Program-made: the position numbers and the translations under genes | Shown here: in pieces, positions 844-45,724 of the stretch | Numbering within the stretch: the stretch's first letter is position 1 | Layout: the number at the start of each line of letters is the position of its first letter | Assembly: GCA_964187785.1 (NCBI GenBank) | Contig: OZ076409.1 | Span: 69,194,001-69,258,000, forward strand | Origin: Amphiscolops sp. MND2022 | Taxonomy: Eukaryota | Direction: 5' to 3' | DNA length: 64,000 bases | Notes under the pieces: generated by a model | Told to the model about the DNA's origin: nothing | What the model saw: only the letters and a program-made list of their open reading frames with translations | Databases searched by the model: none

Positions 844-3216
844 CCTAAAAATGAAAGTGTAAGAAAAAAGTTTGATAAGGGGTTTTTGTCTCCCCTTCTG
901 AAAACTTCTACCTGAAAACTTAGAATCCCAGGATTGCAAGACAAAAATGACGTCTTGCAAAACTTCGTTTCGACATTTTGCAGGGCGAACGTGTTTCAGC
1001 AAGAACCGTGCAATAACTGCATCGAATTTCAAGTAGCTTGCAAGGAAAACATTTTTCGAACAAAAATTTCAAGACACCTAATCAAAGGTGGCTGTTGTGA
1101 ATAAAAAATATCTAATGGTCGAACTATGACTTCCTCAAAAAATCATAGCTAAAACGAAATTATTTCTCAAAAACTTTTTTCAATATCAGTGTTTTCTGCC
1201 GTACAAGATGATTGTCGAACCTGTGCTTACGTCCTAGTTGAAACTGCGGGAGCTTTTTACATGCTGCAGGCCTGCATGCAGGGTAATTGTTTATAAAACC
1301 TAGAACATTTAGTGGTTATTCCAAAGGTAAATTTTGTAGAATTACACAGCATTTTCCACTATTGCAATTAAATTTGAACTTCAAACTTTTTTAAAGATAA
1401 GAAGAAGAAAAGCCGGCAATTTTACGGAAAGTGAGACATTAAATGGGACTTGTTTGTGGTAATTGATTTATATTTACTCTCTGGCTTATTAAGTTTAATT
1501 TCGGCTGAGTTGAATGTAAGTGGAAACTGAGACGCTCAAATTTACATCCATCTGATTGGTTAATATGCATTTTGTGGAAACCATGACACGCATTTGTCGG
1601 CATCTTGGCGGCATTTTCTCGGTCCCGGACTCCGCAAAATGAAACCGGCTAACGTATTAACCCATGTCCTCGTTCCGAAAAACGCCGATTTTTGTGGCGT
1701 GGTTTCCGCAAAATTACTGCTAAACTGCCTATTTTACACGCTTCAAGACATGTCTGCCGAATCGGAGGCCTACAGGCACGGAAATGTGTCTGTAACAATT
1801 TAGCTTGCCTATGCACTGTAATGAAAATAAATACCACTTCATCACCGACAAGACCACTTTGTATTTACACTTTGTTTTCTCAACTACTGGTCTGATGTGA
1901 TCACCGCTTCTCAAATAGGACGCTAAACATGACGCAGATTGGCTATTTATTACGTGACTGAAATTATTTTGCATTAAAATGGCCGTTAAATTGAGAGCGA
2001 TATATATGCTTATAAAATTAAAACTGCTTTTTAATGAAACATGCAAAACTTCAATGCCTAAAATTGTTACCAAAACTTTGATGAATCTTTCAAGGAGCTT
2101 GATAAAAGTCGACTACAACAGTTTCCGTAAGATTTTTAGGAAATCATATTAAGAGTTACTGGCAACATTAACGTACATGCAAAAAGTTCAAGCAGTTTCA
2201 ACAAGGGCGTCCTTTTAACCTGTAGTATCAACAACAGATACATACTGAGTTTTTGAATACGCAAACTATGAGGGTGCTACAAAAACGTTGAAGTAGTTTT
2301 TACGCTATAATTGCTACAGTCATACCCACATTAAGGGAAATTCGTACTTCTTTTGAGATCGATGGATTAAAGAATAAGAAGAAACCAAAAACTGGTGTTT
2401 GTTAAAAGGTTCTTACGTTTTCGATAGAAATTGGTAGATTCCTTGCCATAATGTCAAGATGTCTTCACAAAAAGTGAAACCGGGTCTTCACAAAAAGTGA
2501 AACCGGGAACTTATGTGTGGAATGATAAAAATATCAAAAAATTGCACAATGTCCAAAAACGAAAGGGGGGACACTTTGGACACAAAGAAAACAAAAATAT
2601 TTTAAAAAATAATCTGTTTGCGAAAAACTCCACATCCAAATTTGTTACTTAATTGAAATGTCAAAATGAGGACCCTTCGAATTTCTTTGACCATCCGTAA
2701 AGCTTAGACGTAATGCAGATCTTTGTAAACCGTATCTATCGTATTGTATTCATCTTTCAAAGTCATCATACCGAAATGAAAAAAATCTTTAAAAAACGAG
2801 GAAAACCAGGAAAATCTGGTAGTTCTATATTAATCTCAAGTGAACTACCATGAAAACTACGTTAGTTGCATACAAATTACCTCAAAATACCTAACCAGAA
2901 CGCAACGAAAAATACCTATGGTTTCGGGTTTTACCCGATTCGACTAACATTATGCTAATTTACTTTGTAAAACAAGTTCTACCTCGGATATCAAATTTAT
3001 TTTTACATTCAAGGCAGAGGTCGAGACTGCAGGAAATTTTATCATGTGACTAGACTGCATACAGGGTAATTTCTCATGAAACACAGAGAATTCAGTACGC
3101 ATGTATCTGAATGGAGAGTTGAGAAACACAACCAACGTTAAATTACAAAGCAGTACAAAACTAGAAACACAACTTTAAGACAGAAGGACTTGTAGTTTCA
3201 ATGAAAAATCTTTTTA

Positions 3217-3334
3217 CACTAGGACCAAAATTTGGAGACACTTGATTTCTCCAGCAAAAATTTCAAATTTAGTAATACTAATTTTTGAAACTTTTGCTTG
3301 AGAAATCAAGCGTCACCAAATTTTGGTCCTGGTG
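3217..3334. mobile_element. Fold-back MITE (near-perfect ~118-bp hairpin)
   Basis: CACTAGGACCAAAATTTGGAGACACTTGATTTCTCCAGCAAAAATTTCAAA pairs with TTTGAAACTTTTGCTTGAGAAATCAAGCGTCACCAAATTTTGGTCCTGGTG; preceded by TA. Confidence 0.6.
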
Positions 3335-4014
3335 GAAATAGATTTTTTTCGATCTTTTGCTTCTGTGACATAATATTTTCAATTTGGGTTAATTGGGTTT
3401 TCAATTAACAATTTTTCTGTGTCGCAGAAGCAGTAATGTCTTAGACTTTGATCGGATTGACAACGCCAGTTTTTGCTTCAAGCTGGAATACAATTTTCAA
3501 GGTGTATCACATCTTGTTGTATTTTCACATCTTATTGAACTTTTCCGGGCAAAATATCGCAAAGGATTGGTCGTATTGAAAAATGTCAACATTAAACTCT
3601 ATTGGCTTGGCATGGCACTGTTCTGTAATTTTTTGTCAGAGACATTTCTTTGAAACAACTGGTGTGAAAATGAACAACGGAAAGTTCTTGAAACCTCGTC
3701 CATACGAAACTTTCAAATTGTAACTTTTGATGAGCTCTCAGATTATGAATTTTTGGCGCTGTTTATTCTTACCGCCGTCGCTTCCTGAACAAGACACCCG
3801 CTAAGCGCCGGAATATTTTCCGCCACACAAAAAAGTGTGAAGAAGGCGAGCTTCGAAACCCAACCATACTTCTAGAAAAAGCAAAAAAAGTATGACAAAG
3901 ATATTGACGGCATTATACCGTCAAAAGTATAATACCGTGAAAGGCAAAATGAAAACAAATTGCAATAGAAACACGGCGCCCGATCAGCACCGGGATACTT
4001 TCCGCTAAAAATGT

Positions 4015-10542: not shown

Positions 10543-10964
10543 TGAGCTGTTAAAAAGTGTGGTGGTAGTTTCTTTAAGATGTTTTATTATAGACATAAGA
10601 AGTCTAAGATTTTAACAGCGAGGTCGTCTTATTTCAAGTCTGTTTAGCTAGCTATTTCTAGGTCTAATCTTTCTGAGATCTCAGTTGAAGTCTAAGTCGA
10701 AAACACGACTATTTGGTGGATTAGAATCTCAATTTCTCCAAGTAGATATATCTTATCAACTAGGATAGATTTAATTAATTTACATCAATAAGAAAGTGAC
10801 AGTAACAAGATACATCTGAGAAGCTTGTTACAGGATATATTAAGTGAAGTTTCTTCTGAGATAATTAGCTTTCAAATGAAATTACATTTACTAATTACTT
10901 TGGTTAGGAGTTCAGAATGTTTCAGATTTATAGAATCTTTGAGGACATGCATCATGGCATCACA
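10543..10964 (-). repeat. 3' LTR of the 17.7-kb element
   Basis: Direct repeat of 27825-28246; 8 substitutions and no indels by manual comparison (~98%). Confidence 0.97.
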
Positions 10965-12211
10965 ATCAACCGGGAATTTAAAAATAAAATTACATATATG
11001 CACTTTGGGTTTGAGGAGTTCTAAAAGTTTTTGTCTCAAACTGTTAAAATTTCTATTTCAGATGTTATGTGCATGGGTTTGTTTCTTATTTGTTATGCAT
11101 GAGTTTTGTTCTGAAATGTACCATACTTAAGGAGTGAAAACAACCTTAGACGAGTTGACGTCTTACGTCATAGACGATTCAATTGGTGCAAAAAGGTTTA
11201 AGTTCTCTCAGTTTCTTTGACTGACAGTTTTCGGTCAAGTTATTTTTGACAACTATTTACTATTCCATGTTTCTTTTTCGTATCAGCCATCGGCTTGTTT
11301 GAAAAAAGTTCATCAACATGAGTTAGTCAGCATTGAAAACTTTTCAAGTTGAAGAATTAAAGCGTGATGTTGTCAATGAGTTGTGAACCAACATTGGCGG
11401 GTATGTGAACCAAAAGTGAAGAAGTTTCGAAAAAGTCAAGGTTCTAGTGAGAGTTCATTTTCAACAAAAGTGAAGAGTAGAGCAGAAGCAAGAAGTTCTG
11501 GAATCAAAAAAAACTTTGACAATTGCAAGTTTCAAACATTGAAAAACGAGAAGTTAAAGTTGTGAAATGTTCAAAAGAAAAATTTTTGAAAATGTTGGGA
11601 ATGCTTTTGGAGAAGTAAAATAAAGTTGTACAAAGCATGTTTTGTAAAGAAAAATTTTTGTCAAAAATCTTAGAAACTTTCTGTACTATACGTAGGACTT
11701 GTGTTCGGTAAAAGATGTGGATTATAGATGTATTGAATAGATGTATTATACACATAACAATGGGGATAAAATTTGGGATAATATTTTGCGGTTACAAGGA
11801 TAATTATAGATGAAATTTTGTGGGGGTTTTGCAACAGAAGGGGTAATTATAGTATGATTTTACAAGATTGAGATTAAATAAGATTATACATTATTAAGAT
11901 TATATTATGAATTAATAATAAATAAGATTATACGTTAAAGTTACAATAAAGTTAGTAAGATATAGTTTGACATTTACGGCAAGTAAATAGTTTGAAATTG
12001 GCAAGTGAATTGTGGCGAGTTCAGTTCATTGCAAGTGAATTGAGTCCAGTTTAGTGGAGCAAAGTGAGAAGACCAGTCAAGTTGAAAGAAGTCAGCATTG
12101 CAGTGACGATTGTGAAGACGAGAGGCAGAAGCAGGTTGTCAAGGTGGAAGAACCCAGTGGCGATGGATGATGTTGACCATCTAGAGGGTGTGCGTGAAGC
12201 AGTGAGAAGTG

Positions 12212-12788
12212 TCAGCGAAGTTCTTTGGGGGAGTGATCAGCAACCATATTTCGGGACATCATCGAAGAAGGATGAAGGAATGAAGACGAGATGTAGTTGA
12301 AGACTAAAGGAAGGTGAGTGAAAGTGTTTGTTAATTGTTGAAACAGAGGATGTTGCGGCGGAGGATGTGCCTGATGCACATGCGGGTCGTAGTACTCAAG
12401 AGTTTGGGTGCACCCAAAATCGTTGAGAATGTTGTTGAAGGCAAGGATTGCTTCTTGTATGGCAGTGTGGAAATATTGATCTTTTGATGTAAATGCGGAA
12501 TTCAAAACGAAAACAGCATTGGATGCAGTTTCGCAGATTGCGACTTTTGGGCCAGCTAAAAGAATTCGAGAGTACTGTTCAAAGGTGATTTTTTTTCTTC
12601 TTGATCTGGGCAACGTTGTATAGAACTTTGAGAAAAGCAATAATAGTTTTGGGTGTGATTTTGTTCTTGTTGATTTCAAGAGAAACTTTATAAGCCATCG
12701 TATGAAAGATGGCGGCTTTGAGGTTGTGTACTTTTGAGAAATCTGAGGTCATAGTAATAATGTCTTCTGTTTCAGCATCGGGAGCCAT
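12212..12788 (-). pseudogene. Accessory ORF B of the large LTR element (orphan, ~190 aa after frameshift repair)
   Basis: ORF 12579-12788 (MAPDAETED...IKKKK) joins ORF 12212-12679 (ITFEQYSRILLAGPK...) across the A-run at ~12589-12596; same strand as pol; no recognisable domain. Confidence 0.55.
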
Positions 12789-13201
12789 GGTGACGGAGTT
12801 CTGAAGATCGTGGAGAGAGAGAAGTGGAAATGTTCTGAAAGAATGCAGATGAAGGAGGAAGAAGAATAGATGTTTCTAAAACAAAAGAAGTTTGAGAAGA
12901 GCAACAATGACAAATTAAAGGTGTACAACAAAGTTTGGTGCTAGAATGTATCATATTATGGTGCTATTATATCTTTTTAATGTGTCTTATAGCGTAATAT
13001 TTACATGTAGTATAGGCAAAGAATCGAAAATGTTTTCATGTACTGAAGGACAAGGAAAATGAGTACTGTAAAAGTTAAAAATCCTGAGAATTCATTCAGA
13101 AAATGTTACCTTGAGGTAGTACCTTTATTGTAGGTCAAAAATGTGTCATATAGTGTACCAGAGGAGAAAAATTAGGAATTTGTATTACCTGTAGGAGAAT
13201 T

Positions 13202-14508
13202 TTAATGAAGATCAGTTGAATTAAAAAGAGTAGTTATGGTTTCCAAAGCAGATTGAATTGCTTGGGATGACTGAGTAATGCGTTGAGAGTCTAGATCGAG
13301 TGTCTGTAAGAGTTTGTGTGTTCTGTCATAGCAGTGTAGTATGTGTGTGAGTGTGATGATGGGCGTTTCAGAAGGTGTTCGTTTATATGGGTCTACGAGA
13401 TTTGTTATATCTCGAAGTGTTCGATTGTTCAAGACAGAAGAAAGTTTTTCAGGCGTGTTTTCTATTGGTGATGAAGGTATTTTATGTTCTGATTTCTGTT
13501 CAGCTTGTACCATAAACGAAGTGGTTTTGGCGGCGATAAATAGAAGTTCGTTTTATGAGTATGTCTGTTTGTAGAGAGCTGTATAATATGTTTTGTCTTT
13601 GTCATCGAGTGGAGAAGAGACAAAATATTTACTAACAGTGAGAGGTTTTACTATCTGTGTAGGAACGTTGCAAGGCAACAAAAATTATTCTTGAGGTACA
13701 ATAAGTGTGCGTGAAGTGTTATTGTATGGCAGTAAACAGTAGTACTGTTTTATAGGATCATAGTTTCTAGATATCCTGTTATACACGAGTGATCAAGAGT
13801 GTAGATGTTTGTCATTGTGAAGGGTGATGTATATTTGTAATTGACGAAAATGTAATTCTTTGGTTTTGTATGCTGTAGAAATTTAGTGTATGTTTGATAA
13901 TGAGTGGCTTTTTGTGATACAGAGAGAAAAAACGGATCAGATTTGTCTGTTTTCAAATCGTATATAGATGGGCGAAGAAAGTTAAATAGTAGAGAAAAGA
14001 TTTTGACTCCATTATCGAGCCAGTATTGGTATGGACCCATGATTTTGGAAGCAATATATGTGAAGAAGTCTTGATTTTTGTCATATAAGCGGAATGTATA
14101 GTCTGTAGGATGCATGTAGAGAGAAGTTAGTTGTGCTTTGAAGGTGAAATCATCATGAAAAAGAAGTGAAATCAAATGATCATCACAATTTGTAGAAAGA
14201 GAAGTGTTTGTAGATATGAAAGGAGGATAGATTGATGACGAAAGAAAGACAGGATCTTTCATTATTTCATATCGTTTTTTTGGAGAAGGTGGCGTTGCGT
14301 GTGTATGATCAATATCATTGAGAGGAGTTGAAACCGTCGATGTATCATGTTCAATTTCTTCTTGTTCCAATTGTTCAAGAGACGTGGTAGGTATTGGTTC
14401 AGAAGTGTCAATATATAGAACAAGAGAATCATTTAGAAGAGGTCTCGTTGTGAGATCTGAGGTGGCTTGTTCAAGTTGATTTTGTAGATCGACTAATGCT
14501 TGTGTCAT
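13202..14508 (-). pseudogene. Accessory ORF A of the large LTR element (orphan, ~435 aa)
   Basis: Likely start MTQALVDLQ (ATG at 14508). One frameshift near 13760 and two in-frame TAA codons link ORF 13750-14598 to ORF 13202-13513 through coding-like sequence (NYDPIKQYYCLLPYNNTSRTLIVPQE*FLLPCNVP...TYS*NELLFIAAKTTSFMVQAEQ). Confidence 0.6.
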
Positions 14509-14818: not shown

Positions 14819-17061
14819 TCAAGAAGATGGCGGAGAAAAGGGATAATTTACTCGTGAAAAAATTTTAATAGGTGTATCCGTATTAGATGTGACAGAAGTA
14901 ATAATTATGGTGTCATGTTGAGTGGCTAAATTGTCATTCGGATGTGAGTTTGGAGTGGAATAATTAGGAAGTGAAAGATGTTGTTCAGAAGAATAAAGCG
15001 TAGATGGTTGAAAAGTAATTTTCGATTGAGAAAAGTGATGTCTTTTCGGAAATAAATTAAATTTTGGTATCTGGAGTTTATTAGGACGTTTAGCATAGAA
15101 AGATTGGAGGGGAAGTAATACCGGTAGAATGGTTAATTAAATTGGTTGAAGTGTCAGAGAGATGGTCCAGAGATTTGGATTTAAAAAAGAGATTTTTTGG
15201 TTTTTTATTTTGGGTATCATGAAGGTCATTGACCATTTGTGCTGTAAGGATGGTAAAGAAACCATGTGCTATTGAACTAAATAAAGTAATATTATTTTTT
15301 AAATTACATTTAATAGATATTGTTTTGTAAAGTTTGACAATGAGTGTAAGGGTAGCTTGTACAAAAAGAAATGTAGAAAAGTATATACCACATTGTGTGA
15401 GAATATAACAAGGGTATCCAAAAAGTGCAATAAAAGCATCTGAAAACCATGTAGGTGTAAAAAGAGGAGTTAAATTTAAAAGTTTATCATGGAGTCCTAT
15501 ACGTAATGTATTGTAAGGATTACCAGAATCTTGAGGGGAATTTGCATCATAGTTAGGAGTATTATATGAAATGAACGAATAACTAAGAGCTTTACCTAGT
15601 AATTGAAGTGTAGAATCAGAAAGTTTGGAAAATAAAATACGATTCCAAAAATGATAAAGTTCTGCATTGGATTATATACCAGCATCTTGAGCTGTAAAAG
15701 TGTTAGGGCGCATTGTAGTTTTAATTTGTGAAGGTGTAAACCTTAATGGAGTTTTGCGTTTAACAGGTTCAGGTCCAAGAATGTAAAAATCTTGATCGTC
15801 TGAATCAGGATCTAGTTCAATAATATTACGTTGATTATTATCACATGTAATTGGTGTAGCATAGTCATAGATTTGTCTTGTGATAGGATCAACGTACATT
15901 AAAGTGTCTTTAAAGTGTATAGGTATACGGTCAAAGCATCGATCAGCTTTGTATAAAGGGGGGAATATAAATTTGTTATTTGAAGTGTCCAATACTATTT
16001 TGCCAGAAATAAATTCATCAATCATAGAATGAGGATTGGGTTGTCCTGTATGCATATTGAAACCATCAGCGTATGTAACAAAAAGGTCTGAAAATTGTGT
16101 AGAATGAAGTGCGTCTGGTTTACCACAGAAAGTTTGTGCTGTAGGAAAAACTTCAAAACGTGAAAGACTTGGGTTATTAGGATGTTGTGTATGAGGAGCA
16201 TAAACATATGGATGTTCTGAACCTTTAATACCAGAAGTTGTTTTGGGTTTTATTGAGTGTGGAGAATGTACAAAAGAGTCTGTTTCAATCCAATATCTCT
16301 CTTCGATTTTAGTCATACGTCCAATAAAGTCTTGTAGTGTAAATATTAAGCAGTAATCATCATTAAACCAAACAAGAGTAAAAGGAGTTTTCGTTGTGGG
16401 TTTACAAAAACCATCTGCAAAATAGCAGGGTAATGTATGTCCATCGATTATCATGTCATTAGATGTGTCATCATAAGTAGGTTCTACTTCAGAAATTTCT
16501 AATCGCCAACTACCTAAGTTGACTTCGAATTGGTGATGAGCGGGACAGTTATGGTAAAGGTTTTGCGTAGGGTCATTTATCCAGTTTTTATCTGCAGGCA
16601 TAAAGGTAAAGGTACCTGTATACACTTTGTTTAATTGGTATGCAGTGAAAGGAGTTTGATATTGTTCTAATCGTTCTTGAAAGTAATGATCTTCTAAGAG
16701 TGTGAAAGTTTTATTGTAGTGGAGATTGTTCAATATTTTATCATTTGTACCATTAAGGTGATTTATAATGTTTTTACATTCTAATGGATCAAGAGTAACA
16801 GGAAGCGGTAATGTAGTATGATTCCATACAGTTTTATCAACACGACGGTATATTACGGAACCTAGAAAAAATTTTTCTTTCCTCTTTGGCGTAAGCAACA
16901 CATTTAAAAGCTTTAATGCGTTTAGCTTTTGCTCGGACATATACACGGACTTTAACACTTGCGTGTTTAACGTCAGAAGGAGCTTCAGTGCATTGTTTCA
17001 CATTAACTAAGTTAAACTGTCTCAAATTATGTTGTTCTGCACATTCATAATGGGAAACCAT
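14819..17061 (-). pseudogene. env: env-like class III (chuvirus-type) fusion glycoprotein, disrupted
   Basis: N-terminus HYECAEQHNLRQFNLVNVKQC...FKC; LDPLECKNIINHLNG; C-terminal ectodomain RCFDRIPIHFKDTLMYVDPITRQIYDYATPITC. Past a premature TAA (15672-15674) it reads DAGI*SNAELYHFWNRILF, then a hydrophobic TM segment AFIALFGYPCYILTQCGIYFSTFLFVQATLTLIVKLY (~15330-15437) and a long S/T/P tail. Multiple N-x-S/T sequons. Confidence 0.8.
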
Positions 17062-18415
17062 GAGATTTGTGATATTCGGATCATCCGATGGAAGATAGTT
17101 TTCTGTATCAGAAGGTGTTATGGGTATTAATAAAGGTGAAGTTAAATAACTGTAAATAGAGTATCAGAGTTGTTATATAAGAGGTTGTAAAGAGTTCAAA
17201 AAGAGGTAGTATATTTAAGACCGGAGTATGGGTTACAGATTGTGATTTTGCCATATGTAGTAGTGGGTATATTGAGGTCTCGTTCAACTTCAATGTGTAC
17301 TACTTCAAAAGGAGCAGGAGAGGTATTATGTTCTATTTTGGAGACGTGAAATATTGGATGGGGATTTAAACCTTGAAATTTAACTTCAACTTCGAATTTG
17401 AGTTTTAGATTAGGTGTTTGGAGGCGTTTTAGTTCTGTTTCTTTTCTTTTTTGAGATAAGAGATCGTTATTTGTGATAAAGCGTTCTGCAAGAATAGGAA
17501 ATCGAGGATCGTTTTGTGCGTCGTAGATGGTTATACCATCGACTCGAAGTGGATAGTCAACAGAATTTGGGGTTGGAGGTCTAGATTGATCTGCAGTATA
17601 ATATTCGGGTATTCTAATATGTGCAGGAACAGGAGTAGGTATTATAACTTTTGAGAAAAGATTTCCAGAAAGGATTGCAGTCTGAGCGTCTGAAGAAAGT
17701 AGAGAGGCGGTTTCAAAACCAGATGTGAGATACGGAGAAGGTATAAAGTCTGAGGGATTTGTTTCTGAGGACAACAGTTGTGCGTGTTGTCGTACAAGTC
17801 GTAAAATAGAATTGCTAGCTAGAGCGGATAGATTAAGGGTGGAAGTATCTGTACTAAATCTGCGTGAAGGAAGGTCTGGAAGATTATATCTATGTTGTGG
17901 TACAAAAAGAGAGCTTGTAGTGTCCTGTGAAGAAGTATATTCTGATGTATTGTCTAAGAGGTTTGATAGTGATGTAGAAGGTTTTCGAAGAGGTTTTAGT
18001 GGAGGATAGAGTTTAGAAGAAGTATTGCTGAGTTCTGATGGAGATTTCAGTGGAGGTAGTTTTGTATATTCAATGTCAGGAATGTGTACAAGATTAAGTT
18101 GAGGTTGAAGCCTAGCAGTTTTGATAGCTGTAGGATGTTTGTAATTTACGTATTGTTCAACAGTTTCAGGGTTTGGTATGTGTACTAGGGAGTGTTAATA
18201 GGAGTTTGTTGAGTACGAGTGGTAATAGGGATTTCAGTTACAGGTGGTCTATGAAGGAGGGATGAAGATGATGTTTCAGAAACGTATGATCTTGGTCTTT
18301 TTGAAGGACTAGTAGGAGTTACACTACGAGAATTTATATTGTTTGATTTTGAAGATTCAGGAGTGGAGGGAATACTTGGAGCTGATGGAGATATATCAGA
18401 GGAAGAATCCAGGAT
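17062..18415 (-). pseudogene. Ser/Pro/Thr-rich plus globular ORF directly upstream of env (possible long env leader or separate gene)
   Basis: ORF 17196-17774 plus upstream in-strand S/P/T-rich coding-like sequence (DSSSDISPSAPSIPSTPESSK...). One stop and one frameshift near 17196 and 17150 would fuse it to the env frame (...LTSPLLIPITPSDTENYLPSDDPNITNLMVSHYEC). Confidence 0.5.
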
Positions 18416-18524: not shown

Positions 18525-21126
18525 TTACAGTTTTGAGGGTGTAATAAAAAGTATATAATCTAATTTGGGTTGTTCTCGTAGTTTATAGGTAGTTTTCGTA
18601 GTTCTGTCAATTAGAGAAGGAAGTGAATCTGTTTGATTATTAGAAGGGTGTCTTGATCTGTCACTAGGGATATTAGTGTGAGGGGTGTTAATTATATCCT
18701 TGTATAAAGAGTTGTCATTGGTTGAGGGAGTTAAAGACTTGTGATTGGATGTTCTAGATAGTGTATTTTGATTGGAAGTACTGAATGATGATGGTGTCAC
18801 AAATGTTTGAGAAGAATCTTCTGTAGTGGATGGTGTCATGAATGTTTGAGAGTCTTCGTCTGATAAGGATTCGTCTGAACTAAAAGGAGAAGAATCACTG
18901 TTTGCATATTTGATAGGTTGTGGAATTTGGAGGTGAGTTGTGTCTGAAAAGCGCGTGAAACTACGCAATTGTGGATATAAAAGTGGTTCTTTTGGATAAT
19001 ATGGAATCAAATGATTTCGGTGAACATGTATTGTAGAGCCATCTTGTGCAAGTAGTTCATATGTTACATCTGATAGTCTATCAATAATTTTGTATGGTCC
19101 AATCCGAAGTGGTTTTAGTTTGTCAGAAAATTGTACGTGTGTGAAATTTCGTTTTAAAACAAAAGTGCCAATAGGAAGTGGTTTACTTTCGTGGTAGGGT
19201 TTTGTAATGTATGCGTGTGAATTGGTTTTTCGTAAAGTGTTTTCATATACTGTAGAATAAATTTGTAACATAGCAGTTTCCACGGCGAGAAACCATTGTG
19301 GAATGGGTTTTGAAAGTGTTCTATAAAAAAATGGGTTGAGATCTGATTTATCATAGTGTGAGAGTTCTGGAAGTTGGGAGCAATAGCGTGAAATACATGT
19401 TTTTAGAGGTGTCTCTATTAAGATTTAAATCGAAAGTAAGGGGTATTCTGGGTCTTGTGTGAAAAACAATTTCATGAGGAGAAATATTGAGTTCTGAAAG
19501 TGGTTGTGAATTATGTGCATAAGCGTACATATGGACTTGGAATGCCCAATCTTTAGGTGTATCGTGTAAGAACATTCGTAAATGTGTACCAAGATTTCTG
19601 TTTTTTACTTCGACAAGGACATTTGTCCAAGGACAGTAGGCTGTTCTGGGAGAATGACGAATTCCCATGAGTGTACAAAGTTGTGCCATTTCTTTGTTTA
19701 CATATTCTGATCCACGATCAGTAACAAGATATATGGGTGGTCCAAATTTAAAAATCCAATGGTGTAGGAGAGTTTTGATTGCAGTTTTTGCGTTGTTTGA
19801 TTTGATGGGCACCGTAACGACAAAGTGACTAAAAGCGTCAATTATGACATGTATATAGGATTTGTTGTGTGAAGGAGGATTGATAGGTCCTTTAGTGTCC
19901 ATTGAAATGCGGTAATTGAAAGATGGAGCATGTTCTGAGAATGATTGTGTAGGAGCAGTTTGGATTTTCATGTTGAAGTGTTTATTGCGTTGACATTCAA
20001 CACAGTCATGTATGAAAATGGAAAGCCATTTTTCGACAAATGGAATGTAGTAATATTGTGCGAATGTCTTATAGGTAATTTTGATACCTGTATGAGAGTG
20101 TCCATGAAGGTTGTTAAAAACAGTTTTGAACAGTCGGAATGGAAGACATATTCGAATAGTAGCGCGTACAAAATCTGGAGTAGAAGATTGGCTTAGAGTT
20201 GTAGGGTGTTTATTATAAAGTCTAATAAGATTTGTGGAAGCATCTATAAAAAATTGTGAAAATCTTTTGTAATAAGCATGTAGAAAAAGAGTGCCAGTGA
20301 TAAGTGGTGTTAGAGTTTCAGGTTTTTCATTTTTAACGATCCACGAATAAACTGTTCTAAGAACCGGGTCTTGGGATTGTTGTTGTTGAAGTGTTGTTAT
20401 GTCTAATGAGTAGTCATCTGGGAGGAAGAAACCTTGAAAATAGTTTTTGTACTTAAAAAATGATGTATCATAGAAAAGTATAATCTGTGGACAATGTGTA
20501 AGAGATGGTAAGTTTGTTTGTACATTTATTGCAGAAAAAGATTTTTGTGAGGTGCTAGGTGTCGATTTGTTGAGAGTAGAGTAGTTTTCTGTTTGTAATG
20601 TTGTGTCATGTAAGAAGGAAGAGTCAGATTTTGGAATTTTTGTATATATATGATCTTCGTCATCACTTGTAATATCAGTATCATTGAATAAAAGAGATTG
20701 TTGATGAAGGGTTTTATTGTTCTTTTTTATAGGTGTTTTGAACTTGGTTTGAAAATGAGTTATAGATTTGAATGAGAAGGATTGTAAAGGTTTGACAACA
20801 ATGTCATTTCCTTTGTCACTGATACGAATAGAGAATTGATCTGTACCATAATCAGCAAGAATTGGGTGAGAGTCATGTTTTTGGTGAGGTAAGATTTCTT
20901 TATGTTTAATTAAGTAATGTACAGGTTTAAGAGTGCCATTTTGTAAAAGTGCAAAATCAAATTGTGGTGGAAGTTGTAATTCAGCTTTTGTAAAAGAGCG
21001 ACTTAACATATCGGCAACAGAGAGGTTTTTTCCAGGAGTATGAATTATTTTGAGTTTTGTAAATTTCGTTAACTGCATTTGAGCTCTGTAAAAACGAGGA
21101 CTAAGGTTGCCTTTTTTGTAAAACAA
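18525..21126 (-). pseudogene. pol: pol 3' part: RNase H end, long spacer, integrase (HHCC, DDE) and GPY/F-type C-terminal domain; frameshifted
   Basis: ADMLSR; HGHSHTG...CVEC zinc finger; SMDTKGP, VTDRGSEY and LVEVKNRNL catalytic motifs; KLKPLRIGPYKII...VHRNHL. Confidence 0.92.
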
Positions 21127-23597
21127 AGTAAAAAAGCTTTGTGATCAGTAAAAATGTGTATTGGATGGGGAGAACCAATGATAAGAAATTCATAGATTTG
21201 GAGAGCATGTACTATACCAAGAAGTTCTCTGTCTAATGTTGAAAGTTTTTGTTCTTGTGGGTTGAGTATACGAGAGTTGTACGATATAACTTTCATTTTC
21301 TTCTGTTCATTCAATTGGAATAAGACAGCGCCTAATCCAATAAGTGAAGCGTCAACTGTAATGAAAAATGGATGTTTTGTATTTGGTATTGTAAGTTCTG
21401 TTTCAGAAGTAAGAGACATTTTAAGTTTTTGAAAAAGACTTTCGTGTTCATCTGTCCATTTCCAAGGAGTGTTCTCATGTAAAAGATCGTAAAAGGGTTT
21501 AAGGTTCTTATGTAGTTTTTCAATAAATTTGGTGTAAAAGTTAAGTGCGCCAATGGAACTCATTAGAGCAACTTTGCCAGTTGGAGAAGGGATTTAATGG
21601 ATAGCTGCAATTTTCGAATGGATTGGTTTAATTGTATTGTAACCAATTTCATGTCCAAGAAATTTGACTTTAAGAAGCATGAAAAAATATTTTTCAGGGG
21701 CTAGTTCAAGATTGTTTTTTGAACTGATAATATGTAGTTTTTCTATGAGTTGGAACATGTGTTCTTTAGAGTCAGATAAAAGTAATATATCGTCAATGTA
21801 GACAAGGGCAAAACCTTGTTCTATAAGAGTTTTCAAGAAGGTAGACATTTGTTTTGTAATGAAGTTTGGAAGTCCTTTAAGACCAAAGAAGCCTCGGATG
21901 AAAGCGAAGAGTTTATCTCCTGAGGAGAAACTGGTAAGTTTAATAGTGTCTTCATCAAGAGGTGTATGTGCATAGGCATACATAAGGTAAATTGCAGATT
22001 TGTACTTTTTGTTTGCGCGTGCTAATTGTAGAGCAAGAGGTTCAATAGGCCAAGATTCATCGGATTGTTCTGTATTTGAGTTAAGATGTCGAGCATCTAA
22101 TACACATTTTATAGTGTCTCCCTTGGGGAATATAATGAGAGGGTTTAAATAAGTTGTGCCATAAACTGGTTTGTCTTGTGGGGAGGAACCAATTTGTTTG
22201 ATGATGTTATATTTTTCTAGTCCTTTGAGAAGTACCTTAAGTTTGTCTCGGTAATGAATAGGGACTTTAGAAGGACGTTGTGTCATAAGTTGAGCATTAG
22301 GTTTAAGTCTAATACGGAAGGGCGTTGAAATTTTTCCAACATCGTTTTTATGAGTTGCATAACATGTTTTGTATTTGAGTAACATATTGCAAAGGGTAAT
22401 GTATTCAGTGTCTGTAAGGTCAGGAAATTGGAAAATAAATTTATTGATAAACTCCAGATTTTGAGAAGTGTATGGTAGAGAAGGAAAAATGCGTTTTTCA
22501 GAATTGTGAGAAGTAGGTTGAACATTGTATAAAGGAGAAGTTTGATGTAGTGTGTTGGATTTTGTCATATAAATTTGATGTAAGGAAAACTGAGGAGGAG
22601 GAGTTGTAGGATCAACGTAATGTACGATATAGTTAGTTTGTGGAACTGGTTCAGTGATTTCAGGATGGTAGGTATGAGTAACATTATGTATTAAGGTGTT
22701 AACATCGTTTACTTGAAAGAATTTGGCTATTTCATTTGTTATTGGAACTTCGATATATCCAATATGTCCTGTAGGTGGTGTTGCAACATGTTTTGAGGTG
22801 TTCTGGATGATAGTTGCACAAATATCTGGTTTGTCATCTGTTAATACTTCAATAAAATTGAAATTTGTACGAAATTTAGTAGCAAAATAGGTATGTGGTA
22901 CTGAAGGGAAGAAGTGATTTTGTGGTGTAGTTGTAAAGTGAAGGTTATGATAATTTTCTATTGGAAAGTGTGCAATTTTAGAAGACTTGGGTTTTAGACG
23001 GATTTGAGTTTTTGAATTAATTCTATAAATGTAAGAGAAATATGGGCAGTCTTTAGATAGAAGTGTTGTGAACTTTGCATAATTTGGGTGTGTTTTTGAT
23101 TGGTATTTGAATTCGAGTGTAAAGTCTTGTATGTTTTTGTTTTGTATATTGTCTTCAAAGAATGGTGTACCAAGGATGTTGTATTTAATATCCGCTACTG
23201 CAAAAGGTACTGAAAAGTAACGGGAATTTTCATCAATAGTGGTGTTCAAAATTATATTGGCAAAATGTAATATAGGAACTTCGGTTTGATTTGCAACGGT
23301 TAATGTTTTTGAATTTCGAGTTGGTCCTACGTCAGAAGTGTGATTTGGTCTGATATCCAAGAGTTTTGTGAGAGTTATGTATGTTGGGTAATTTAATACA
23401 GAAATGGAAGCACCGCTATCTAGAAGGAATGCAATTTCCAATCTAGATGGGTTGTCTCTTTGTGTTATACTTGATGGTGTATGAACATATAGTGTATAAA
23501 ACCAACTTGTAGGTGTTACAGCGTTTGCCATTGCTGTTGGGTGATACATGTGTACTTCAAATTTTATAGGGTCAGATTGGTCTTGTTGTTGTATCAT
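21069..23597 (-). pseudogene. pol: pol 5' part: aspartic protease, reverse transcriptase and RNase H; frameshifted near 21590
   Basis: LLDSGASIS protease motif; ILGTPF; RT motifs VLDARHLN, GFFGLKGLP, YIDDILL, VKFLGH; RNase H TVDASLIGLGAVL, DRELLGIV, FTDHKA. Confidence 0.95.
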
Positions 23598-26500
23598 ATT
23601 AATATTGTTTTTGGAATTGGAGTGTGAACGAGGTCTAGAAAATCTAGAGTCTCTTGGTCTTGAAAGTGGTCTGTACGAATTTGTATGTTTTGTGAATTTG
23701 TTATCTCTGGAATAGGAGCGTGATCTATATCTAGGGCGAGAGTTGTGTCGATACGGAGATCTGTATGAGGATCTGTATGGAGAGCGGTAAGACCGGGAGT
23801 CACGTTTGTACGTATCATATCGTGATCTAGAGTAGTGTGGAGGAGTAGTACTTTTGTCATAACTAAACCTGTCTCTAGATGTAGGTATCGATTTTGTGAT
23901 TAGTCTTTGTTGTAAAAATTGTCTCGTGAGGTACTTCGACTTCGGTATCGATTATCATAGTGTTTTGTTTTATCATTGGAAGGAGAACGAAAGTACTGTA
24001 CAAATGATTTTTGAGGAGATTTTGATCGAGCATATGCATCTCGTTTGTCTTCATCATCTCGTTGTTTTTTGAAACAAGCAGAGATGAAATGATTTGTTCT
24101 ATGACAATATGAAAAATATTTTTATATGCAGGTTTATTTTTGTTATTTGGGTCTTTGGGTTGTGTAAACATAAGTTGTTCTTGAGATGAAGGGTCAAGAG
24201 TTTGAGTGTTCAACTGTTTTGTAATATTGTTATTTTCAAGTGCAAGATCATGTGTTCTGATTTTGTCGTTTGCAATATCTTCAGCGTCAACAAGTTTTAC
24301 TAATGTATGAAAAGGAATTGAAGGTTCTAAAACAGTAGAAGTGTGTTTTACTTGTCTTTTGTTTGCAAAGTCTTTAAGGTGTTTTGGAAGTCCTTTTGTA
24401 AAAATTTCGTTACATTTGAGGTTAATAGTGGATGCATTCTCATTACACCAGCTTTTTTCAACCAGCTGTTGAACTTTGAGTGCAAAATGACGTACTGTTT
24501 CATTAATTTTCTTTGTTAAATTAAGGGCTTCAACTTGAGCATAGTAAGCGTTCTTTTGTGAAGAGAATTGTTTTTTGAAAGCTTGTACAAAGGCGTGCCA
24601 ATCGTGTTTATAGGTGTCATTTAAACGAATGTACCAACTTAGTGCTGTACCTGTTAAAGAGCATTGTATGAAAGCCATGCGACGAGCGTGCCAAAATTTA
24701 CATTCATGTTCTGATGTAGGTTGTAAACCGAAGGAAAATGTAACACGGGCATCAATATGTTGTAGGTATTCTTCAGGTGCATAATTATGATCTAGTCCAT
24801 CAAAAGGTTTAATGGGTTCTGATATAGAAGTAGAAGAGTTAATATATGTTGGGTGTGACATAGTATTGTGAGATATGGTAGATGGTGGTGCTGTATTGTA
24901 TGTAGGATTATTTCAAATATAAGTAAAAGAAGTGGTAGAAGTGTTGTGAAAGTGAGGATTGGTTCTAATTGTTGTTGAAGGAGGATTTTGCATTTGAAAT
25001 TGGGAGGTTTGTAATGTAGGTGTGATTGTGTTAGACATGTGTTGAGGAGGGAAAGTATTGAATGAATTGGGTCTGTTAGTATTTGTCTGAGATTGTTGTG
25101 TATGACTTGGATTTGTACTTGTAAGATTGTACGATAATGGATTAGTTAATATAGTTTGTAATGGAGCTCGAGAAAGATGCCTGGAAGTGGTGTAATTAAA
25201 GGGTGGATTCGAATGAATGGTGTTAATATTTAAAGTAGGTTGTGTAGTTTGTACTGGGTTAGTTTGAGCTGGAGTATAGGTTGAAGTTTGTATTTCAGTA
25301 GGTGATGATGGGGTTGGTGTTTGAAAATGTACTGTATTAGTGTTTTGTGTAATATGTTGTGTATTTGAAGAGCTTTGTTGAGGAAAATTATGGGTGTGAA
25401 TCTGAGTTGAGAATTGGGATGGAATAGAAGGAGGGTCATAATTTCGACGAGGTGATACTTGTGTCTGAGAGGGTTGTGTAATATTAGTATGTGATGAAGA
25501 TAAAACAGAGGTATTGTCTTGATTTGTAGTTAAAGTGTTTGGTTGTTAAATTCGTTTTGTGTGATATTGTGGGTAGGAATTTGTATAAGATTTGAGTCAT
25601 CAGTTATTGTAAAACTTCGTGTATTTTGTACAGTTTCTTCAGAGAATTCTGATGTATTTTGGATTGTAGCTGTCTCAGAAGGATTAGCTTCTTGTATATC
25701 GGAAGCTTGTGGTAATGGTGGATATAGTGGGTGTTCTTGATGAGGTTCTGGATTTTCGAAAAGAGTAGTAAAGTCTTCTTGTTCAGATTGTTCTGAATGT
25801 TGTCTAGTGTATAAAAGTTCAACATTGAATGTTTGTTGTTCAGGAGTTGTTTCAGGAGAAGTATCAGATGTAATAAAAGGTCGATTATCTGGTGTTTCAG
25901 AATGTTCAACTAAAAAGTTTTGGTCTAAGTTTATTTGTTCAAAATGTGTAACATTAAATGAGGTAAGATCTCTGTTTTGTAAATGTTTATTTTCATTTTT
26001 TATGATGTATGGTAAGAGTACTGTGTGTGTTAGTATTTGAGGGAAGTTGATGTAGGCTTGTTGATCTTTTTGTTCCCAGAGTAATTGATAGTTAAATCGG
26101 AAAAACTTTAATAGAAAGTGAGTAAAAATTTTGACTTGAGGGATAGTGTCATCTGTAAGAATAAAATTGTTGAAGAATCTGTATCGAAATTTTTTTTTGT
26201 AAATTATCTTGTTGTAGCCAGTAATGAGGGTTATCATTTCTTTGAATTCTTGTGTCAAGATCAGGGACCTCGAAATATTCAGATCTGTGTTTTAGTTCTT
26301 CTAGGTGAGAAGAACGATAAAGTGGTGTATCTTGGTTTTCATTGAATTCAATATGTTTTTGCATGTATGTGCGGAAAACATCTTGTATAGAGAGTGTAAT
26401 ATTTTGTGGATGGATGGTTCTATAAAACGTTCCAGGACTTATTCCTTTAACTGGAATAAAAATAACTTGAAAAGGGGTTTGTGATGATGTTGTTTCAAGT

Positions 26501-26700
26501 GTTTCATATCGAATGTAATAAAGATAAGAGTCACAATGTTCTCGTGCCATTGGGATAGTATGTACTGTATGGGGTTCTGTTTCAAAGGGAAGTGGATTTG
26601 TGTACTGAAAGAGGATGTTATTTAGGAAAGGTGTTACATCTTGTATAAGAGATCGATTTTGTCTTTTTTCTGTAGTTAATGTAAACGGGGTAGGAAGCAT
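23598..26700 (-). pseudogene. gag: Extended gag (~1000 codons): N-terminal globular domain, T/S/P/Q/N-rich linker, capsid, degenerate zinc knuckle, RS/RY-rich region in frame with protease
   Basis: ORFs 26149-26700, 25530-26258 and 23875-24861 join through frameshifts. Capsid-like PIKPFDG...LTGTALSWY...WHAFVQAFKKQF...ETVRHFA...FTKGLP; knuckle FSYCHRTNHFISAC (~24073-24115); RS-rich 23610-23880 reads into MIQQQD of pol. Confidence 0.85.
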
Positions 26701-27499
26701 TATATGGTGTAAAATTTAGTTAGTATAATAAGATTGCCATAAAGGATAGATGTATTGGAAAAGGAGATATTTTGTATTGAATTATGAATTATATGGTAAG
26801 ATTTGGTCTATGAATACAACTTGTAAGAATTTTGTAAGTGCTGTACTTAGGAAAAGAAGAAATGGGTTTTGTATATATTGTATAAGTGTATAAAAGGTGT
26901 AGTAAATACTAAGCAGTCCAAAAAGAGGTAGTACTATACTTGTTAACATAGAAAAAAAAGGTTGTACCTTAAAATTTTGGTATGAATGAAATTAAAAATT
27001 TGTCAAAAAAAGTGCAAGACCGGCAACTATAGCAACAAAGAACCAAAAGCAGACAATGAGCTTAACTACAATGTCTACTGATGACGACATGTACAATAAA
27101 GTTCTCTTAAGAGTATGTCAAGAAGTTTGTATAAAAATTTTTTATATATATGTGTGAAAAATGAGAGTTATATAAAGAATTAATTGATATATGTTATATA
27201 TTTTTAATTGTTATGTATTTGGATCCGTAAACTAGTTTTGAAAGAGATTTGTATGGTGTGTGTATGATAGAAGAGAGAGAAAGAAGTATTAGAATAGGGT
27301 TATGTGTAAAATATATGTTATATAGGTGTGCCAACTTAAAAGTTGATCCAAACGGCTAGAACCAAATCATTTTTACTAGCAGGAATCGCTGGATAGCACT
27401 GTAAATGGGCCAACACGTATCGCACGTCTGCGGTTGGAACGGAAGAAGGTAAGAAAGCCAACACGAATTCACTCAGAGGTGGTTGGAACGAAAAATTTT

Positions 27500-27804: not shown

Positions 27805-27822
27805 AGTTTCTTGGTCGCACCA
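27805..27822 (-). promoter_or_regulatory. Primer binding site of the large LTR element
   Basis: Minus strand reads LTR end CA, then AT, then TGGTGCGACCAAGAAAC; TGG complements the tRNA CCA end. The cognate tRNA was not identified. Confidence 0.75.
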
Positions 27823-27824
27823 AT

Positions 27825-28246
27825 TGAGCTGTTAAAAAGTGTGGTTGTAGTTTCTTTAAGATGTTTTATTATAGACATAAGAAGTCTAAGATTTTAACAG
27901 CGAGGTCGTCTTATTTCAAGTCTGTTTAGCTAGCTATTTCTACGTCTAATCTTTCTGAGATCTCAGTTGAAGTCTATGCCGAAAACACGACTATTTGGTG
28001 GATTAGAATCTCAATTTCTCCAAGTAGATATATCTTATCAACTAGGGTAGATTTAATTCATTTACATCAATAAGAAAGTGACAGTAACAGGATACATCTG
28101 AGAAGCTTGTTACAGGATATATTAAGTGAAGTTTCTTCTGAGATAATTAGCTTTCAAATGAAATTACATTTACTAATTACTTTGGTTAGGAGTTCAGAGT
28201 GTTTCAGATTTATAGAATCTTTGAGGACATGCATCATGGCATCACA
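27825..28246 (-). repeat. 5' LTR of the 17.7-kb element
   Basis: Direct repeat of 10543-10964; adjacent to the PBS and followed by TSD CTCG. Confidence 0.97.
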
Positions 28247-29499
28247 CTCGAAAAACTATTCAATATCCTACTTTCTGAAAAGCTAGAAAAGCGTTTCATT
28301 TTGGAAATAGGGTTTCTGATTTTCCTATATAGTAGCAAACTACTTCCCTCAACTAATGCTATTAGTAACTCGAATTAAGGATCCCTTCTGCTCTGCTTAA
28401 GTTTTCCGAATTAAGATTAGACCCCTAATTGATTTTTTACCTCCGCGACAGATCTTAATCTGATTCGCAGCATAGCCTCAGCGTTACTTAACGCTTGGCT
28501 TCTGAATTATTGCGACTTCGTTCAGCTTGAGTGGTAATGGGTAAGAATTTGGGCTCCAAAAACAACTTAAAATCAATTAGCTAATGAGAATCCTACTCAA
28601 TCCTAGATTGAAAACTGTTGAAGATGCAAGAGCTGTTAAGGTTTCTCTTTGACGGGTATATTCTCGGACAGTCCATTAGCAGCGACCTTCACCGGTATTT
28701 TGATTTTATTTTGCGCTAAAACCTTTTCGAAACAAAAGCCATTGCATATAACAACTACTTGATTCTCTTGAAAGAATTTTAATTTGTTGCAGAATTTTCA
28801 AATAGAACACGAAGGCCGCTCAACACTGAACGTTGATAGTGATACAGATTCATAACAAACTAACCAGTTTTCAATTGTTGGTCAACTTTCATCCGTAATG
28901 TTGCACTTTTTGCGATGGGGAATTTATTAAAATTTTGCAACAGATGCTAAAAATAATTATTTTCACTAACTGTGAAATTTCCCCAAAATTTTTTGGTGAG
29001 ATCTATTTTACAGCTAGCTCAAATGAAAAACAGAAACAATTCGGCAGAAAAACTATTCAGGTGAGGAAACTTCTGCACAGCAAAACTTCCATGAAACAAG
29101 TCGGGAACGTCATAAGTCCCGCTTAAAGCTCAAAAAGAGCCAAAACAACTCAAATCGTCAACGAATCTCTTCTGAAAAAATTTCAATTTCAAAGTATCAA
29201 AAAAACCAAACACGGGACACTCATGGTGTGTAAAAGCAATATTAGGAAAAACGTAAACGCATCAAAATAGTGATTAATTGTCAACTCAAGGCAAAAAGCA
29301 GAGTTATTATACCAAACGTACGTAGGACCATTGTTAGGAACCAAATTAAGACCGGTGATTTTTTTCGTGTATGCTTTGGGTTACTTTGTTCATCATCTTT
29401 TTGATGAACTCAACATCTACCTTCTTGACACAATGTTTAATTCTTTGGACTAAATCATCTCTTGAAGTTGCTTAAAGGTCGTTTTCGTATACCAATTGT

Positions 29500-35016: not shown

Positions 35017-35740
35017 TTTTTAGTCGGCGCTTTTCTTAAGAAAAGAGCCCGACTATTACAGTCACTCGTTTTTTTTTCTTTTTTTTAAGACAGACTCGAA
35101 GCGACGAACGTTAAAATTAACGTTCAACTACTAAATACAGTACTAAACTACTGGACCGGTAAAGGCAAACGGGGAGCGCATTCATTTACTTTTTAAACGT
35201 TATCTACAAGCCCGGACGGGACTAAAGGGTCCCCCCTTTCGATTTTTTTTGGCACTGTGCGACTTTTTTTCGAAATTTTTTTAATGTCCCCAAAAGGTTC
35301 CCTCCTTTGAGTTTTTTGTTATTATATTTAAGAAAGTCTCGAATGCGACGAAATTTGTGTTCAGTTTGATCAACTAAACGATTACCTGGGAACCGCATCT
35401 AAGTTATTGCAAAGATGATCCCTCCTTTCATTTTTTTTAAACGTAACAAAACCGGACGAGACTGAAGGGTCCCCCCTTTGATTTTTTTTCTGCACTGTGC
35501 GAATTTTTTTTTAAAAATTTTTGTCCTCCTTCGATTTCATTGAAGTCCCCCTCGTAATATCCGGAGTAAAGCGCTATATCCGAACTTTTGACGTTATATC
35601 CGAACTATTTTGTGTTTTAGTAAGGAGGAGGCGGAGGTTCGAAAACAGGAGTTTTTCATGAAAACGTCCTACGCATTTTTTGAAAACTGCGCTTTTTGAG
35701 TCTTAGATATAGCGCCGACTTTAGACGTTCACGTCTTGTT
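35017..35740 (+). mobile_element. Non-autonomous Helentron/HINE-like repeat, copy 3
   Basis: TTTTTAGTCGGCGCTTTTCTTAAGAAAAGAGCCCGACT ... GATATAGCGCCGACTTTAGACGTTCACGTCTTGTT; internal CCGGACG(A/G)GACT(A/G)AAGGGTCCCCC module duplicated and shared with copy 2. Confidence 0.6.
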
Positions 35741-41899: not shown

Positions 41900-42436
41900 C
41901 GAAATTAGAACTGCTTCCTAATGAAACCTGCATAACTTCGCAGCTCGGAACTGCCGCCAAATTTAGCATGCATCTTATCGAATCTGTGAAATTTTAATGT
42001 GTGGACGTTTCCTCGAGAGTTTGATAAAATCATGAAAACTTAGCTTGGTAACCAACAAAAACATGTAGAAAGTCCAAGCAGTATCAACCAGGGCATTGAG
42101 ATGCTCAGATACAGTCGTTCCCGGCGCAATATGGAATTGATGCGATGAAATTCAAATTTTTGCATTTCATATATCAAACCGTCATTCATATACAAATTTG
42201 TTGCACTCTGAATATAAAAGTTGCACTCGAAATATCAAGTTGCCATTCAAATAGAACACAGTTGAGTTGGATGCCGTACGTTGCATTTCAAATATGAATA
42301 TTATCAATATAATATAAAAGTGTTGCAACCAAATAAAAAAACTCTTCAGAAACATCCGTTTCCGTGTTTCCGTTTTAAAATTTCCGTTTCAACATTTTGC
42401 TTTGCTTTACAGTTTAACTATTCAACTAGCGTGAAC
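41900..42436 (+). repeat. 537-bp direct duplication, left copy (abuts the Gypsy LTR)
   Basis: Matches 48258-48794 with about 4 substitutions; constant offset of 6358 bp. Confidence 0.93.
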
Positions 42437-42859
42437 TGTTCTATTCTAAGGTTGATGTAAGATATATGAGAAAACGAATAAAAGTAATGTTTGTCTTCCC
42501 AATCTTTTATCAAATGTTCTATCCCAAATTTGTATCCAAAATGAGTATAGAGTAAAGTAATCTATTTAGAATTTGTTTGTATACAACTCTTAGGTATGCT
42601 AGACAATTGGGTGGTAGTTTGTAGTTGAGACTCAATAGGGGTCATTCGGATCGACCGTATAACATTTCCCCCTCTCTCCTCTTTTTGGTTCTTTTCTAAT
42701 CGTCGGAAAGGTTCTTTGATGCCGACGTTGATGGTCGGGTTGGTGTCGTCTCCAGATCCTGTGGTAGGAAGTCTGCCGGCTTTTGGATCACTTCCGGTTG
42801 TGGCGTCTCTTTTCTTCTGTTCCAGGGATTTCCTGTAAAACATAAAATTAGTTTTCTGT

Positions 42860-45719: not shown

Positions 45720-45724
45720 TTGTT

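Follow-up and report, generated by a model that had tools for sequence, protein, structure and literature searches.

In Drosophila, errantiviruses form enveloped particles that pass between soma and germline, and the env of the gypsy element is expressed from a spliced RNA of its own, as the env and accessory genes of retroviruses and errantiviruses usually are. Outside the Gypsy elements, BEL/Pao elements named Anakin, reportedly described from mosquitoes by Dezordi et al. in 2020, are said to carry a Chuviridae-like glycoprotein. These Anakin elements also appear in the available text of PMC10084718, in which arthropods yielded no clear case of a capture by Gypsy elements, and in that of PMC13524379. 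Class III env genes in Gypsy elements have been published (Chary and Hayashi, eLife 2026), and PMC13524379, in its accessible parts, reports 1512 env-carrying Gypsy elements, gB-type env across many animal phyla and 114 gB-type elements found with chuvirus-like BEL/Pao baits. Its prefilters were set at no more than 1000 nt between POL and ENV and at 10 kb overall (manual extension could still catch larger elements), its genome list does not take in every phylum, and its discussion states as unknown how gB-type errantiviruses express their env and how they leave and enter cells. Accessory genes, splicing, late domains and CUG are not mentioned in its main text.

Here, we analysed a stretch of 64,000 nucleotides (hereafter the window) of contig OZ076409.1 of Amphiscolops sp. 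MND2022, in which an earlier note, made from the sequence alone, had pointed to an env gene resembling chuvirus glycoproteins. We consider it probable that this locus is the broken env of an 18-kb five-ORF Ty3/Gypsy element, and that the env of its relatives, predicted to be a class III glycoprotein, is likely expressed from a subgenomic RNA on which a CUG serves some ribosomes as the start of ORF2 while others continue scanning as far as the env AUG. The gene lies within a 17.7-kb LTR element on the minus strand, which stands out by its strand bias between about 11 and 28 kb of the window and is bounded by LTRs of 424 bp. The 5′ LTR (27825..28248, minus strand, with TG...CA ends) differs from the 3′ LTR (10543..10966, minus strand) at 9 of 424 positions, and the target-site duplication CTCG stands at both flanks. 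The primer-binding site TGGTGCGACCA (27812..27822, minus strand) is complementary to the 3′-terminal parts of host genes for tRNA-Val(TAC) and tRNA-Met(CAT): a pattern search of the genome found complementary tRNA ends at 16 places, and the six of these loci scanned for tRNAs included one tRNA-Val(TAC) and one tRNA-Met(CAT).

Between the LTRs, all on the minus strand, follow gag-pol (18528..26709, with many broken frames in the window copy), ORF2 (17199..18412), env (14819..17254), ORF4 (13205..14508, broken in the window copy) and ORF5 (12338..12842, about 150–180 codons), and this plan from gag-pol to ORF5 is common to four families of elements. ORF4, of about 440 codons in natural copies, is conserved in all four families (34–69% identity between families, dN/dS 0.13) and matches no Pfam family. 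ORF5 is present in families A and A2, and the ORF found at its position in family B shows no BLAST similarity to the ORF5 of family A. As for the ends of the element, a CCCGGTYG motif, not a purine tract, precedes the 3′ LTR in families A and B (window ~10967–10985; L033, L036, L070, L073), and plus-strand priming may be unusual in these two families. The LTRs of family B (L068–L079) apparently end in TG...TA and not in TG...CA, as judged by the 4-bp duplications, and one family-A copy (L037, G000:C5:13389373-13394936) carries a tandem duplication of the ORF4–ORF5 region that brings it to about 21 kb.

Elsewhere in the window, a second and smaller Gypsy-type element occupies 41900–48557 on the minus strand, with repeats at 41900–42199/48258–48557 (99%) and 42437–42664/48028–48255 (97%), a protease–RT frame (45725–48004) and an RNase H–integrase frame (43413–45941), both on the minus strand; no env was seen in it. 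A frame at 60956–61531 on the plus strand partially matches a kinesin motor (E 2.7e-5) and is probably a host gene exon. Short direct and inverted repeats at 35206–35522, 63263–63453 and 3204–3347 are probably small non-autonomous elements.

In one natural family-A copy, gag-pol is a single frame of 2734 codons, in which a long N-terminal extension, capsid, protease, RT, RNase H, integrase and a GPY/SH3 module succeed one another. The corresponding sites of the window copy are LDSGAS of the protease at 23423, YIDD of the RT at 21800, RNase H at 21072–21593, integrase at 19354–21144 and GPY at 19100, all on the minus strand; YIDD and GPY had already been claimed by the earlier note. The Pfam matches of the element are Retrotrans_gag, RT_RNaseH_2, Integrase_H2C2 and SH3_Tf2-1, and the best PDB match of pol is the Ty3 Gag-Pol (Ty3-G, E 4.3e-45), ahead of the next non-Ty3 entry (1.1e-23) and of foamy Pol (5e-11). 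Because of this Gypsy order of Pfam domains and of Ty3 as the best solved relative of pol, the element is a Ty3/Gypsy element (Metaviridae) and not a BEL/Pao element, which bears out the Gypsy setting that the earlier note had given to the env. BEL-type gag and pol genes are recognized by the domains Peptidase_A17, DUF1759 and DUF5641, none of which is among the Pfam matches (E ≤ 1) of 16 frames of the element. An alternative assignment of pol as Lokiretrovirus/Odin-like was dropped, as Ty3 matches best and Pfam gives one RNase H.

Two further features of gag-pol are worth recording. Ahead of the capsid domain, the extension of Gag exceeds 600 residues (window 25545–26709; L034:5159–7100); its first 270–370 residues are 36–41% identical between families A and B and match nothing in Pfam. 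Moreover, the RT reads RGFYGLxGLPNFF (window 21600–21950; L035:1–60) at a position where Gypsy RTs usually have MPFGLxNAP. The same reading occurs in the pol of a metagenomic relative introduced below (L046), and this motif may mark a distinct lineage.

The env motifs quoted in the earlier note all lie on the minus strand in the order given there, from 17049 to 15638: YEC (17049), FKC (16908), ECKNIINHLNG (16781), CFDRIPI (15938), YVDPITRQI (15896), TPITC (15857), AGI (15683), SNAEL (15671) and ILF (15638). Likewise, the TAA at 15672–15674 and the frame change near 16870–16955 that it had described are real. The gene begins upstream of the span considered there, with an ATG at 17254 and a signal peptide, beyond an additional frame change near 17140, and continues through ectodomain and membrane segment into a long tail interrupted by another frame change near 15100. 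Aligned with a natural copy of 901 aa (P0002, our reference for the pieces, the profile and the structural model), the window env falls into five pieces (17236–17132, 17145–16870, 16955–15954, 15959–15099 with one stop, and 15100–14843), i.e., three frame changes, one stop and 92 missing residues. The missing part corresponds to residues 434–525 of P0002 (gap at about 15960) and includes the central helix of the model. The window copy of env is thus decayed and unable to make the protein, and the element copy that carries it is older than the natural copies with near-identical LTRs. Its frames nevertheless match the Pfam family PF24664 (Monjiviricetes fusion), the middle piece with E 1.5e-5 and the 5′ piece with E 0.047, and the frame with an X at the stop scores 29.8 bits for a cut-off of 27.

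Natural copies give a clearer picture of the protein. P0002 scores 84 bits on PF24664 (E 8e-24), and the env proteins of three sister families score 72–96 bits. The protein has the topology of a type I membrane protein: a hydrophobic leader and a membrane segment near residue 715 (hydrophobic 19-mers at 27 and 715–717) are followed by a tail of 166 residues, and the sequence contains 12 sequons and 17 cysteines. The signal peptide, cysteines and membrane segment are kept in the four families. A monomer model of residues 41–728 of P0002, computed from a 70-row alignment (pLDDT 76.5, pTM 0.54), features a long helix at 404–449, as in the gB/G-type fold, which is further characterized by fusion and PH domains rich in beta structure and by a beta domain IV. 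Among viral proteins, the top Foldseek matches of the model were G proteins of negative-strand RNA viruses, namely those of a chu-like virus (E 3.0e-27), of a xinmovirus (6.8e-27) and of the chuvirus Tacheng tick virus 4 (1.3e-26), with chu-like glycoproteins at ranks 1, 4 and 5 and an identity of only 12–15% for the top matches to viral G. Against the PDB, the Foldseek matches listed were herpesvirus gB (best E 3e-12), while VIA aligned the model to gB over 433 residues with Z 11.1 (rmsd 14.9), to gB domain IV over 156 residues with Z 9.2 (rmsd 3.4) and to lyssavirus G with 7.5; the global TM-scores against G and gB have low values (0.25–0.45). In the ESM Atlas, GP64, Monjiviricetes and rhabdovirus G clusters are neighbours of env at 0.90–0.91. 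A sequence search of the PDB with P0002 returned 3 weak unrelated matches and a search with the 70-row env profile returned 0, so the likeness to gB is visible by fold alone.

Taken together, profile and modelled fold firmly identify env as a class III glycoprotein of Monjiviricetes type, with a gB-like fold that remains a prediction. With the G of Monjiviricetes (Chuviridae, Xinmoviridae, Nyamiviridae; PF24664) and with herpesvirus gB, it has in common a profile score above the cut-off and the predicted class III fold; it differs from them by an identity of 10–15%, a longer ectodomain, a tail of 140–230 residues and its encoding in a retroelement. The structural comparison proposed by the earlier note, when carried out on the model of P0002, returned class III G and gB proteins, and the class III part of its proposal stands on both PF24664 and the predicted fold, whereas the part specific to chuviruses does not, since the xinmovirus ties with the chu-like matches (E about 1e-27) at 12–15% identity. 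The comparison with the Anakin elements is similar: both are LTR retrotransposons with a chuvirus-like class III glycoprotein, but the pol here is of Ty3/Gypsy and not of BEL/Pao type, and the similarity to viral G is remote.

Regarding the origin of env, the earlier note had suggested an independent capture of a class III fusogen. The idea that this Gypsy lineage recently and independently acquired its env from a chuvirus, as a captured G gene, would be in line with the ranks of the chu-like glycoproteins in Foldseek, with PF24664 as the sole strong family match of env and with the long stem (1.79) below the families of this genome, which form a single clade (100/100) in a 26-row env tree; this tree holds no named viral G and cannot place a donor. 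Nonetheless, the identity to viral G is 12–15%, the xinmovirus match ties with the chu-like ones, and unnamed proteins at 25–33% identity are closer to env than any named virus; PF24664 was found in 14 of the 14 unnamed relatives scanned. Ten metagenome loci with such relatives were recovered (L046–L055), nine of them too short to classify, and the single locus of greater length, L046 (13.2 kb), has the arrangement gag-pol-env followed by two ORFs, with a pol 33–44% identical to that of our element. The accessible text of PMC13524379 also argues that gB-type env and Gypsy pol have been associated since ancient times, and by reporting this pairing across many animal phyla it removes the novelty of the pairing. 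Among IMG/VR viral contigs, 54 pattern matches were obtained and none was confirmed. We regard a recent capture as very unlikely, and infer that an env long inherited within the Gypsy lineage fits better. ORF2 is absent from L046, and profiles of ORF2 and ORF4 had no match in the 272 frames of L046–L055 (best E 0.13), so that these two genes are established for the families of this genome only. The ORFs found 3′ of env in the distant relatives form an unnamed family of their own (L046:9651–10754 and 11157–12092, a duplication within L046; L047:3075–3719; L050:2318–4060; L048:2541–3137), with BLAST E-values down to 6e-27 and no relation to ORF4 by profile.

The search of the host genome (1.07 Gb) yielded 9,476 candidates, of which 101, including the window copy, were scored; at least 100 relatives besides the window are 85–91% identical, many of them in frames of 908–927 codons. 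In 16 of the 29 best loci (top matches, not a random sample), a single frame runs from the Met to the tail motif. A protein collection clustered at 90% holds four groups of 1758, 603, 1585 and 424 members (members of the collection, not copy numbers) at 98, 90, 66 and 57% ectodomain identity, and the matching families A, A2, C and B are all found in the host genome. All eight natural copies examined in this respect (families A and B) are 18.0–18.8 kb long, with 4-bp duplications and LTR pairs 99.5–100% identical, hence their insertion is recent. Purifying selection acts on env, ORF2 and ORF4. For the env ectodomain, dN/dS is 0.052 between A and A2 (where dS is near saturation), 0.036 within A and 0.091 for the window piece; the ectodomain is more constrained than pol (0.05 vs. 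0.08), and the env tail is far less so (0.36).

Between pol and env lies ORF2, a frame of about 410–450 codons that ends just 3′ of the env AUG, is devoid of Met in every copy listed and is 33–66% identical between families (dN/dS 0.05–0.13). Its frame opens only past the pol stop (14/14 copies), which rules out a product of pol frameshift or readthrough. Of 14 copies representing the four families, 13 have an in-frame CTG at its start, preceded by A at −3 and followed by G at +4 (ANN-CTG-GAT), though these counts are not independent events, the families being of common ancestry. The context is ATC-CTG-GATC in families A and B, and the window copy, which has one frame change near 18188, reads ATC-CTG-GAT with its CTG at 18412. 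The in-frame AAT-CTG-GAT of A2 and ATA-CTG-GAT of C were predicted before these two families were examined. The sole exception is a family-C copy with CTT (L090), whose ORF2 is also interrupted. CTG is otherwise rare: it accounts for 9 of the 403 Leu codons of env and, in ORF2, for 2 of the 234 other Leu codons.

Moreover, the stretch leading from the ORF2 start to the env AUG is depleted in AUGs, with 0–2 observed against 6.8–9.4 expected from dinucleotide shuffles (p ≤ 0.004 in 8/8 copies), while control stretches are at or above the expected count in 24 cases out of 24. The depletion persists under a codon shuffle that keeps the lack of Met (5/5 representatives, p 0.001–0.037). Under synonymous recoding, the strictest control, it is significant for three of the five representatives of the families, the remaining two giving p 0.13 and 0.34, and amino-acid content thus explains part of it. 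One or two AUGs are left in families A, A2, B1 and C, and the frames that they open span 1–13 codons where measured.

From these observations, the simplest mechanism for ORF2 and env is likely to be a subgenomic RNA combined with a CUG start and leaky scanning. A single subgenomic RNA, for which neither a donor site nor an internal promoter was found, would carry both genes; weak initiation at the CUG would yield the Met-free ORF2 protein, and ribosomes bypassing it would scan through the AUG-poor stretch to the env AUG. A plausible parallel is rice tungro bacilliform virus (RTBV), for which the available text of PMC5902531 describes leaky scanning that involves AUU as start codon and 900 bases free of AUG, i.e., a non-AUG start of the first ORF and a long stretch poor in AUGs before the downstream gene. 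RTBV is unlike our element in being an unrelated plant pararetrovirus that uses AUU instead of CUG and genomic instead of subgenomic RNA, and we claim no membership in its group.

Splicing is an alternative explanation: ORF2 would be a second exon receiving its AUG from an upstream exon, CTG-GAT would be a protein or RNA motif, and env would have a spliced RNA of its own. Besides being the customary route for such genes, this would agree with the pyrimidine-rich stretches ending in CTAG after the pol stop of families A and B and with family C, where 44 open codons with 6 AG precede the CTG. Yet, the open codons ahead of the CTG are free of AG in 11 of 14 copies, and no splice acceptor into ORF2 is common to the families, the AG sites in the first 90 nt past the CTG differing from one family to another. 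Splicing also leaves unexplained both the AUG depletion in all three frames and the use of a rare Leu codon, so that we consider it unlikely. Contigs of a single sequencing run of undetermined kind showed no joints on the 10-kb stretch from the leader to ORF2, which weighs neither way.

What the ORF2 protein would do under the CUG-start model can be approached through its motifs and domains. PSAP, YPxL and PPxY recruit TSG101, ALIX and NEDD4 ligases, respectively. The first 270 residues of ORF2 are rich in Ser, Pro and Thr, with 47 of 270 positions invariant, among which YPxL and YNLR are present in 5/5 sequences and PSAP near the start in 3/5 (chance per sequence 0.01–0.12); in the window, the candidate late motifs are PSAP at 18388 and LYPPL at 18011, on the minus strand. 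Each of the four families of this genome has PPxY in its env tails, and in a wider set of 30 tails, 14 contain PPxY or P[ST]AP, against 1.6 expected (13 of 28 without two probable duplicates), these late-domain motifs having been selected after inspection of the sequences. The Gag extension carries LYPPL as well (25727), hence the budding factor is not necessarily ORF2. The C-terminal domain of ORF2 (about 125 residues) was confidently modelled as a hairpin, two helices and five strands (pLDDT 76.7). This model has no viral Foldseek match at E ≤ 0.001 and a best VIA Z of 3.3 among 48,161 chains, i.e., neither method related it to a known matrix fold. DUF5696, suggested by the ESM Atlas (0.92), was not counted, its recognition value of 1671 being below the 2300 level. 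The domain has 628 homologues, and the best 120 of these 628 are all unnamed and 39–98% identical. Our best guess is that ORF2 is a matrix-like budding protein.

In our reading, ORF2 (through PSAP and YPxL) and the env tail (through PPxY) would recruit the ESCRT budding machinery, and enveloped particles released by one cell would fuse with a second one, as for the errantiviruses of Drosophila. The element could instead spread inside cells only, env and the extra ORFs serving particle trafficking, RNA export or interference with silencing. In favour of this, the model of the ORF2 C-terminal domain matches no matrix protein. In addition, YNLR is the core of the nucleosome- and chromatin-binding peptide GGYNLRPR of foamy-virus Gag, as given in the accessible text of PMC12125541, and would suggest a nuclear destination; in 4 of 5 representatives, pol likewise terminates in a YxLR. 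However, a purely intracellular role does not sit well with an env ectodomain under stronger constraint than pol, nor with the preservation of signal peptide, cysteines and membrane segment in four families, and we deem it highly improbable. Extending the preferred model of budding and fusion to the whole group, it is possible, but at present doubtful, that these are complex infectious enveloped Ty3/Gypsy retroviruses of 18 kb with a class III fusogen, in which a subgenomic RNA would give a CUG-started matrix-like budding protein with a fold not yet recognized and an env reached by leaky scanning over 1.2–1.3 kb poor in AUGs, with two more accessory genes and four families recently expanded in one genome.

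Compared with the gB-type errantiviruses as presented in the available text of PMC13524379, our element has the same Gypsy pol, gag-pol-env order, LTRs, tRNA primer-binding site and many near-identical copies, along with an ectodomain of gB type flanked by a signal peptide and a membrane segment (a furin site not being required). By the operational definition given there, it belongs with them, having a Gypsy pol, an intact gB-type env in its relatives, LTRs and multiple copies. It differs by its length of about 18 kb, its three further conserved ORFs, the Met-free, CTG-headed ORF between pol and env, and a pol–env gap of about 1.2–1.3 kb, beyond the 1000-nt prefilter of that survey. Short motifs of our env gave 0 matches in its ENV sequence supplement, in the portion available, where gapped rows could hide a match. 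A literature search, with subscription papers mostly outside its coverage, found no CUG-started or accessory gene in errantiviruses. What appears to be new is thus the arrangement in five ORFs, in which env is coupled to a Met-free gene headed by CTG, together with the expression strategy that it implies. Four diverged families of one genome have the same five-ORF plan, with a gene headed by a non-AUG codon tied to env and with budding-type motifs, which suggests that surveys requiring an ATG or a short pol–env gap miss a class of complex elements.
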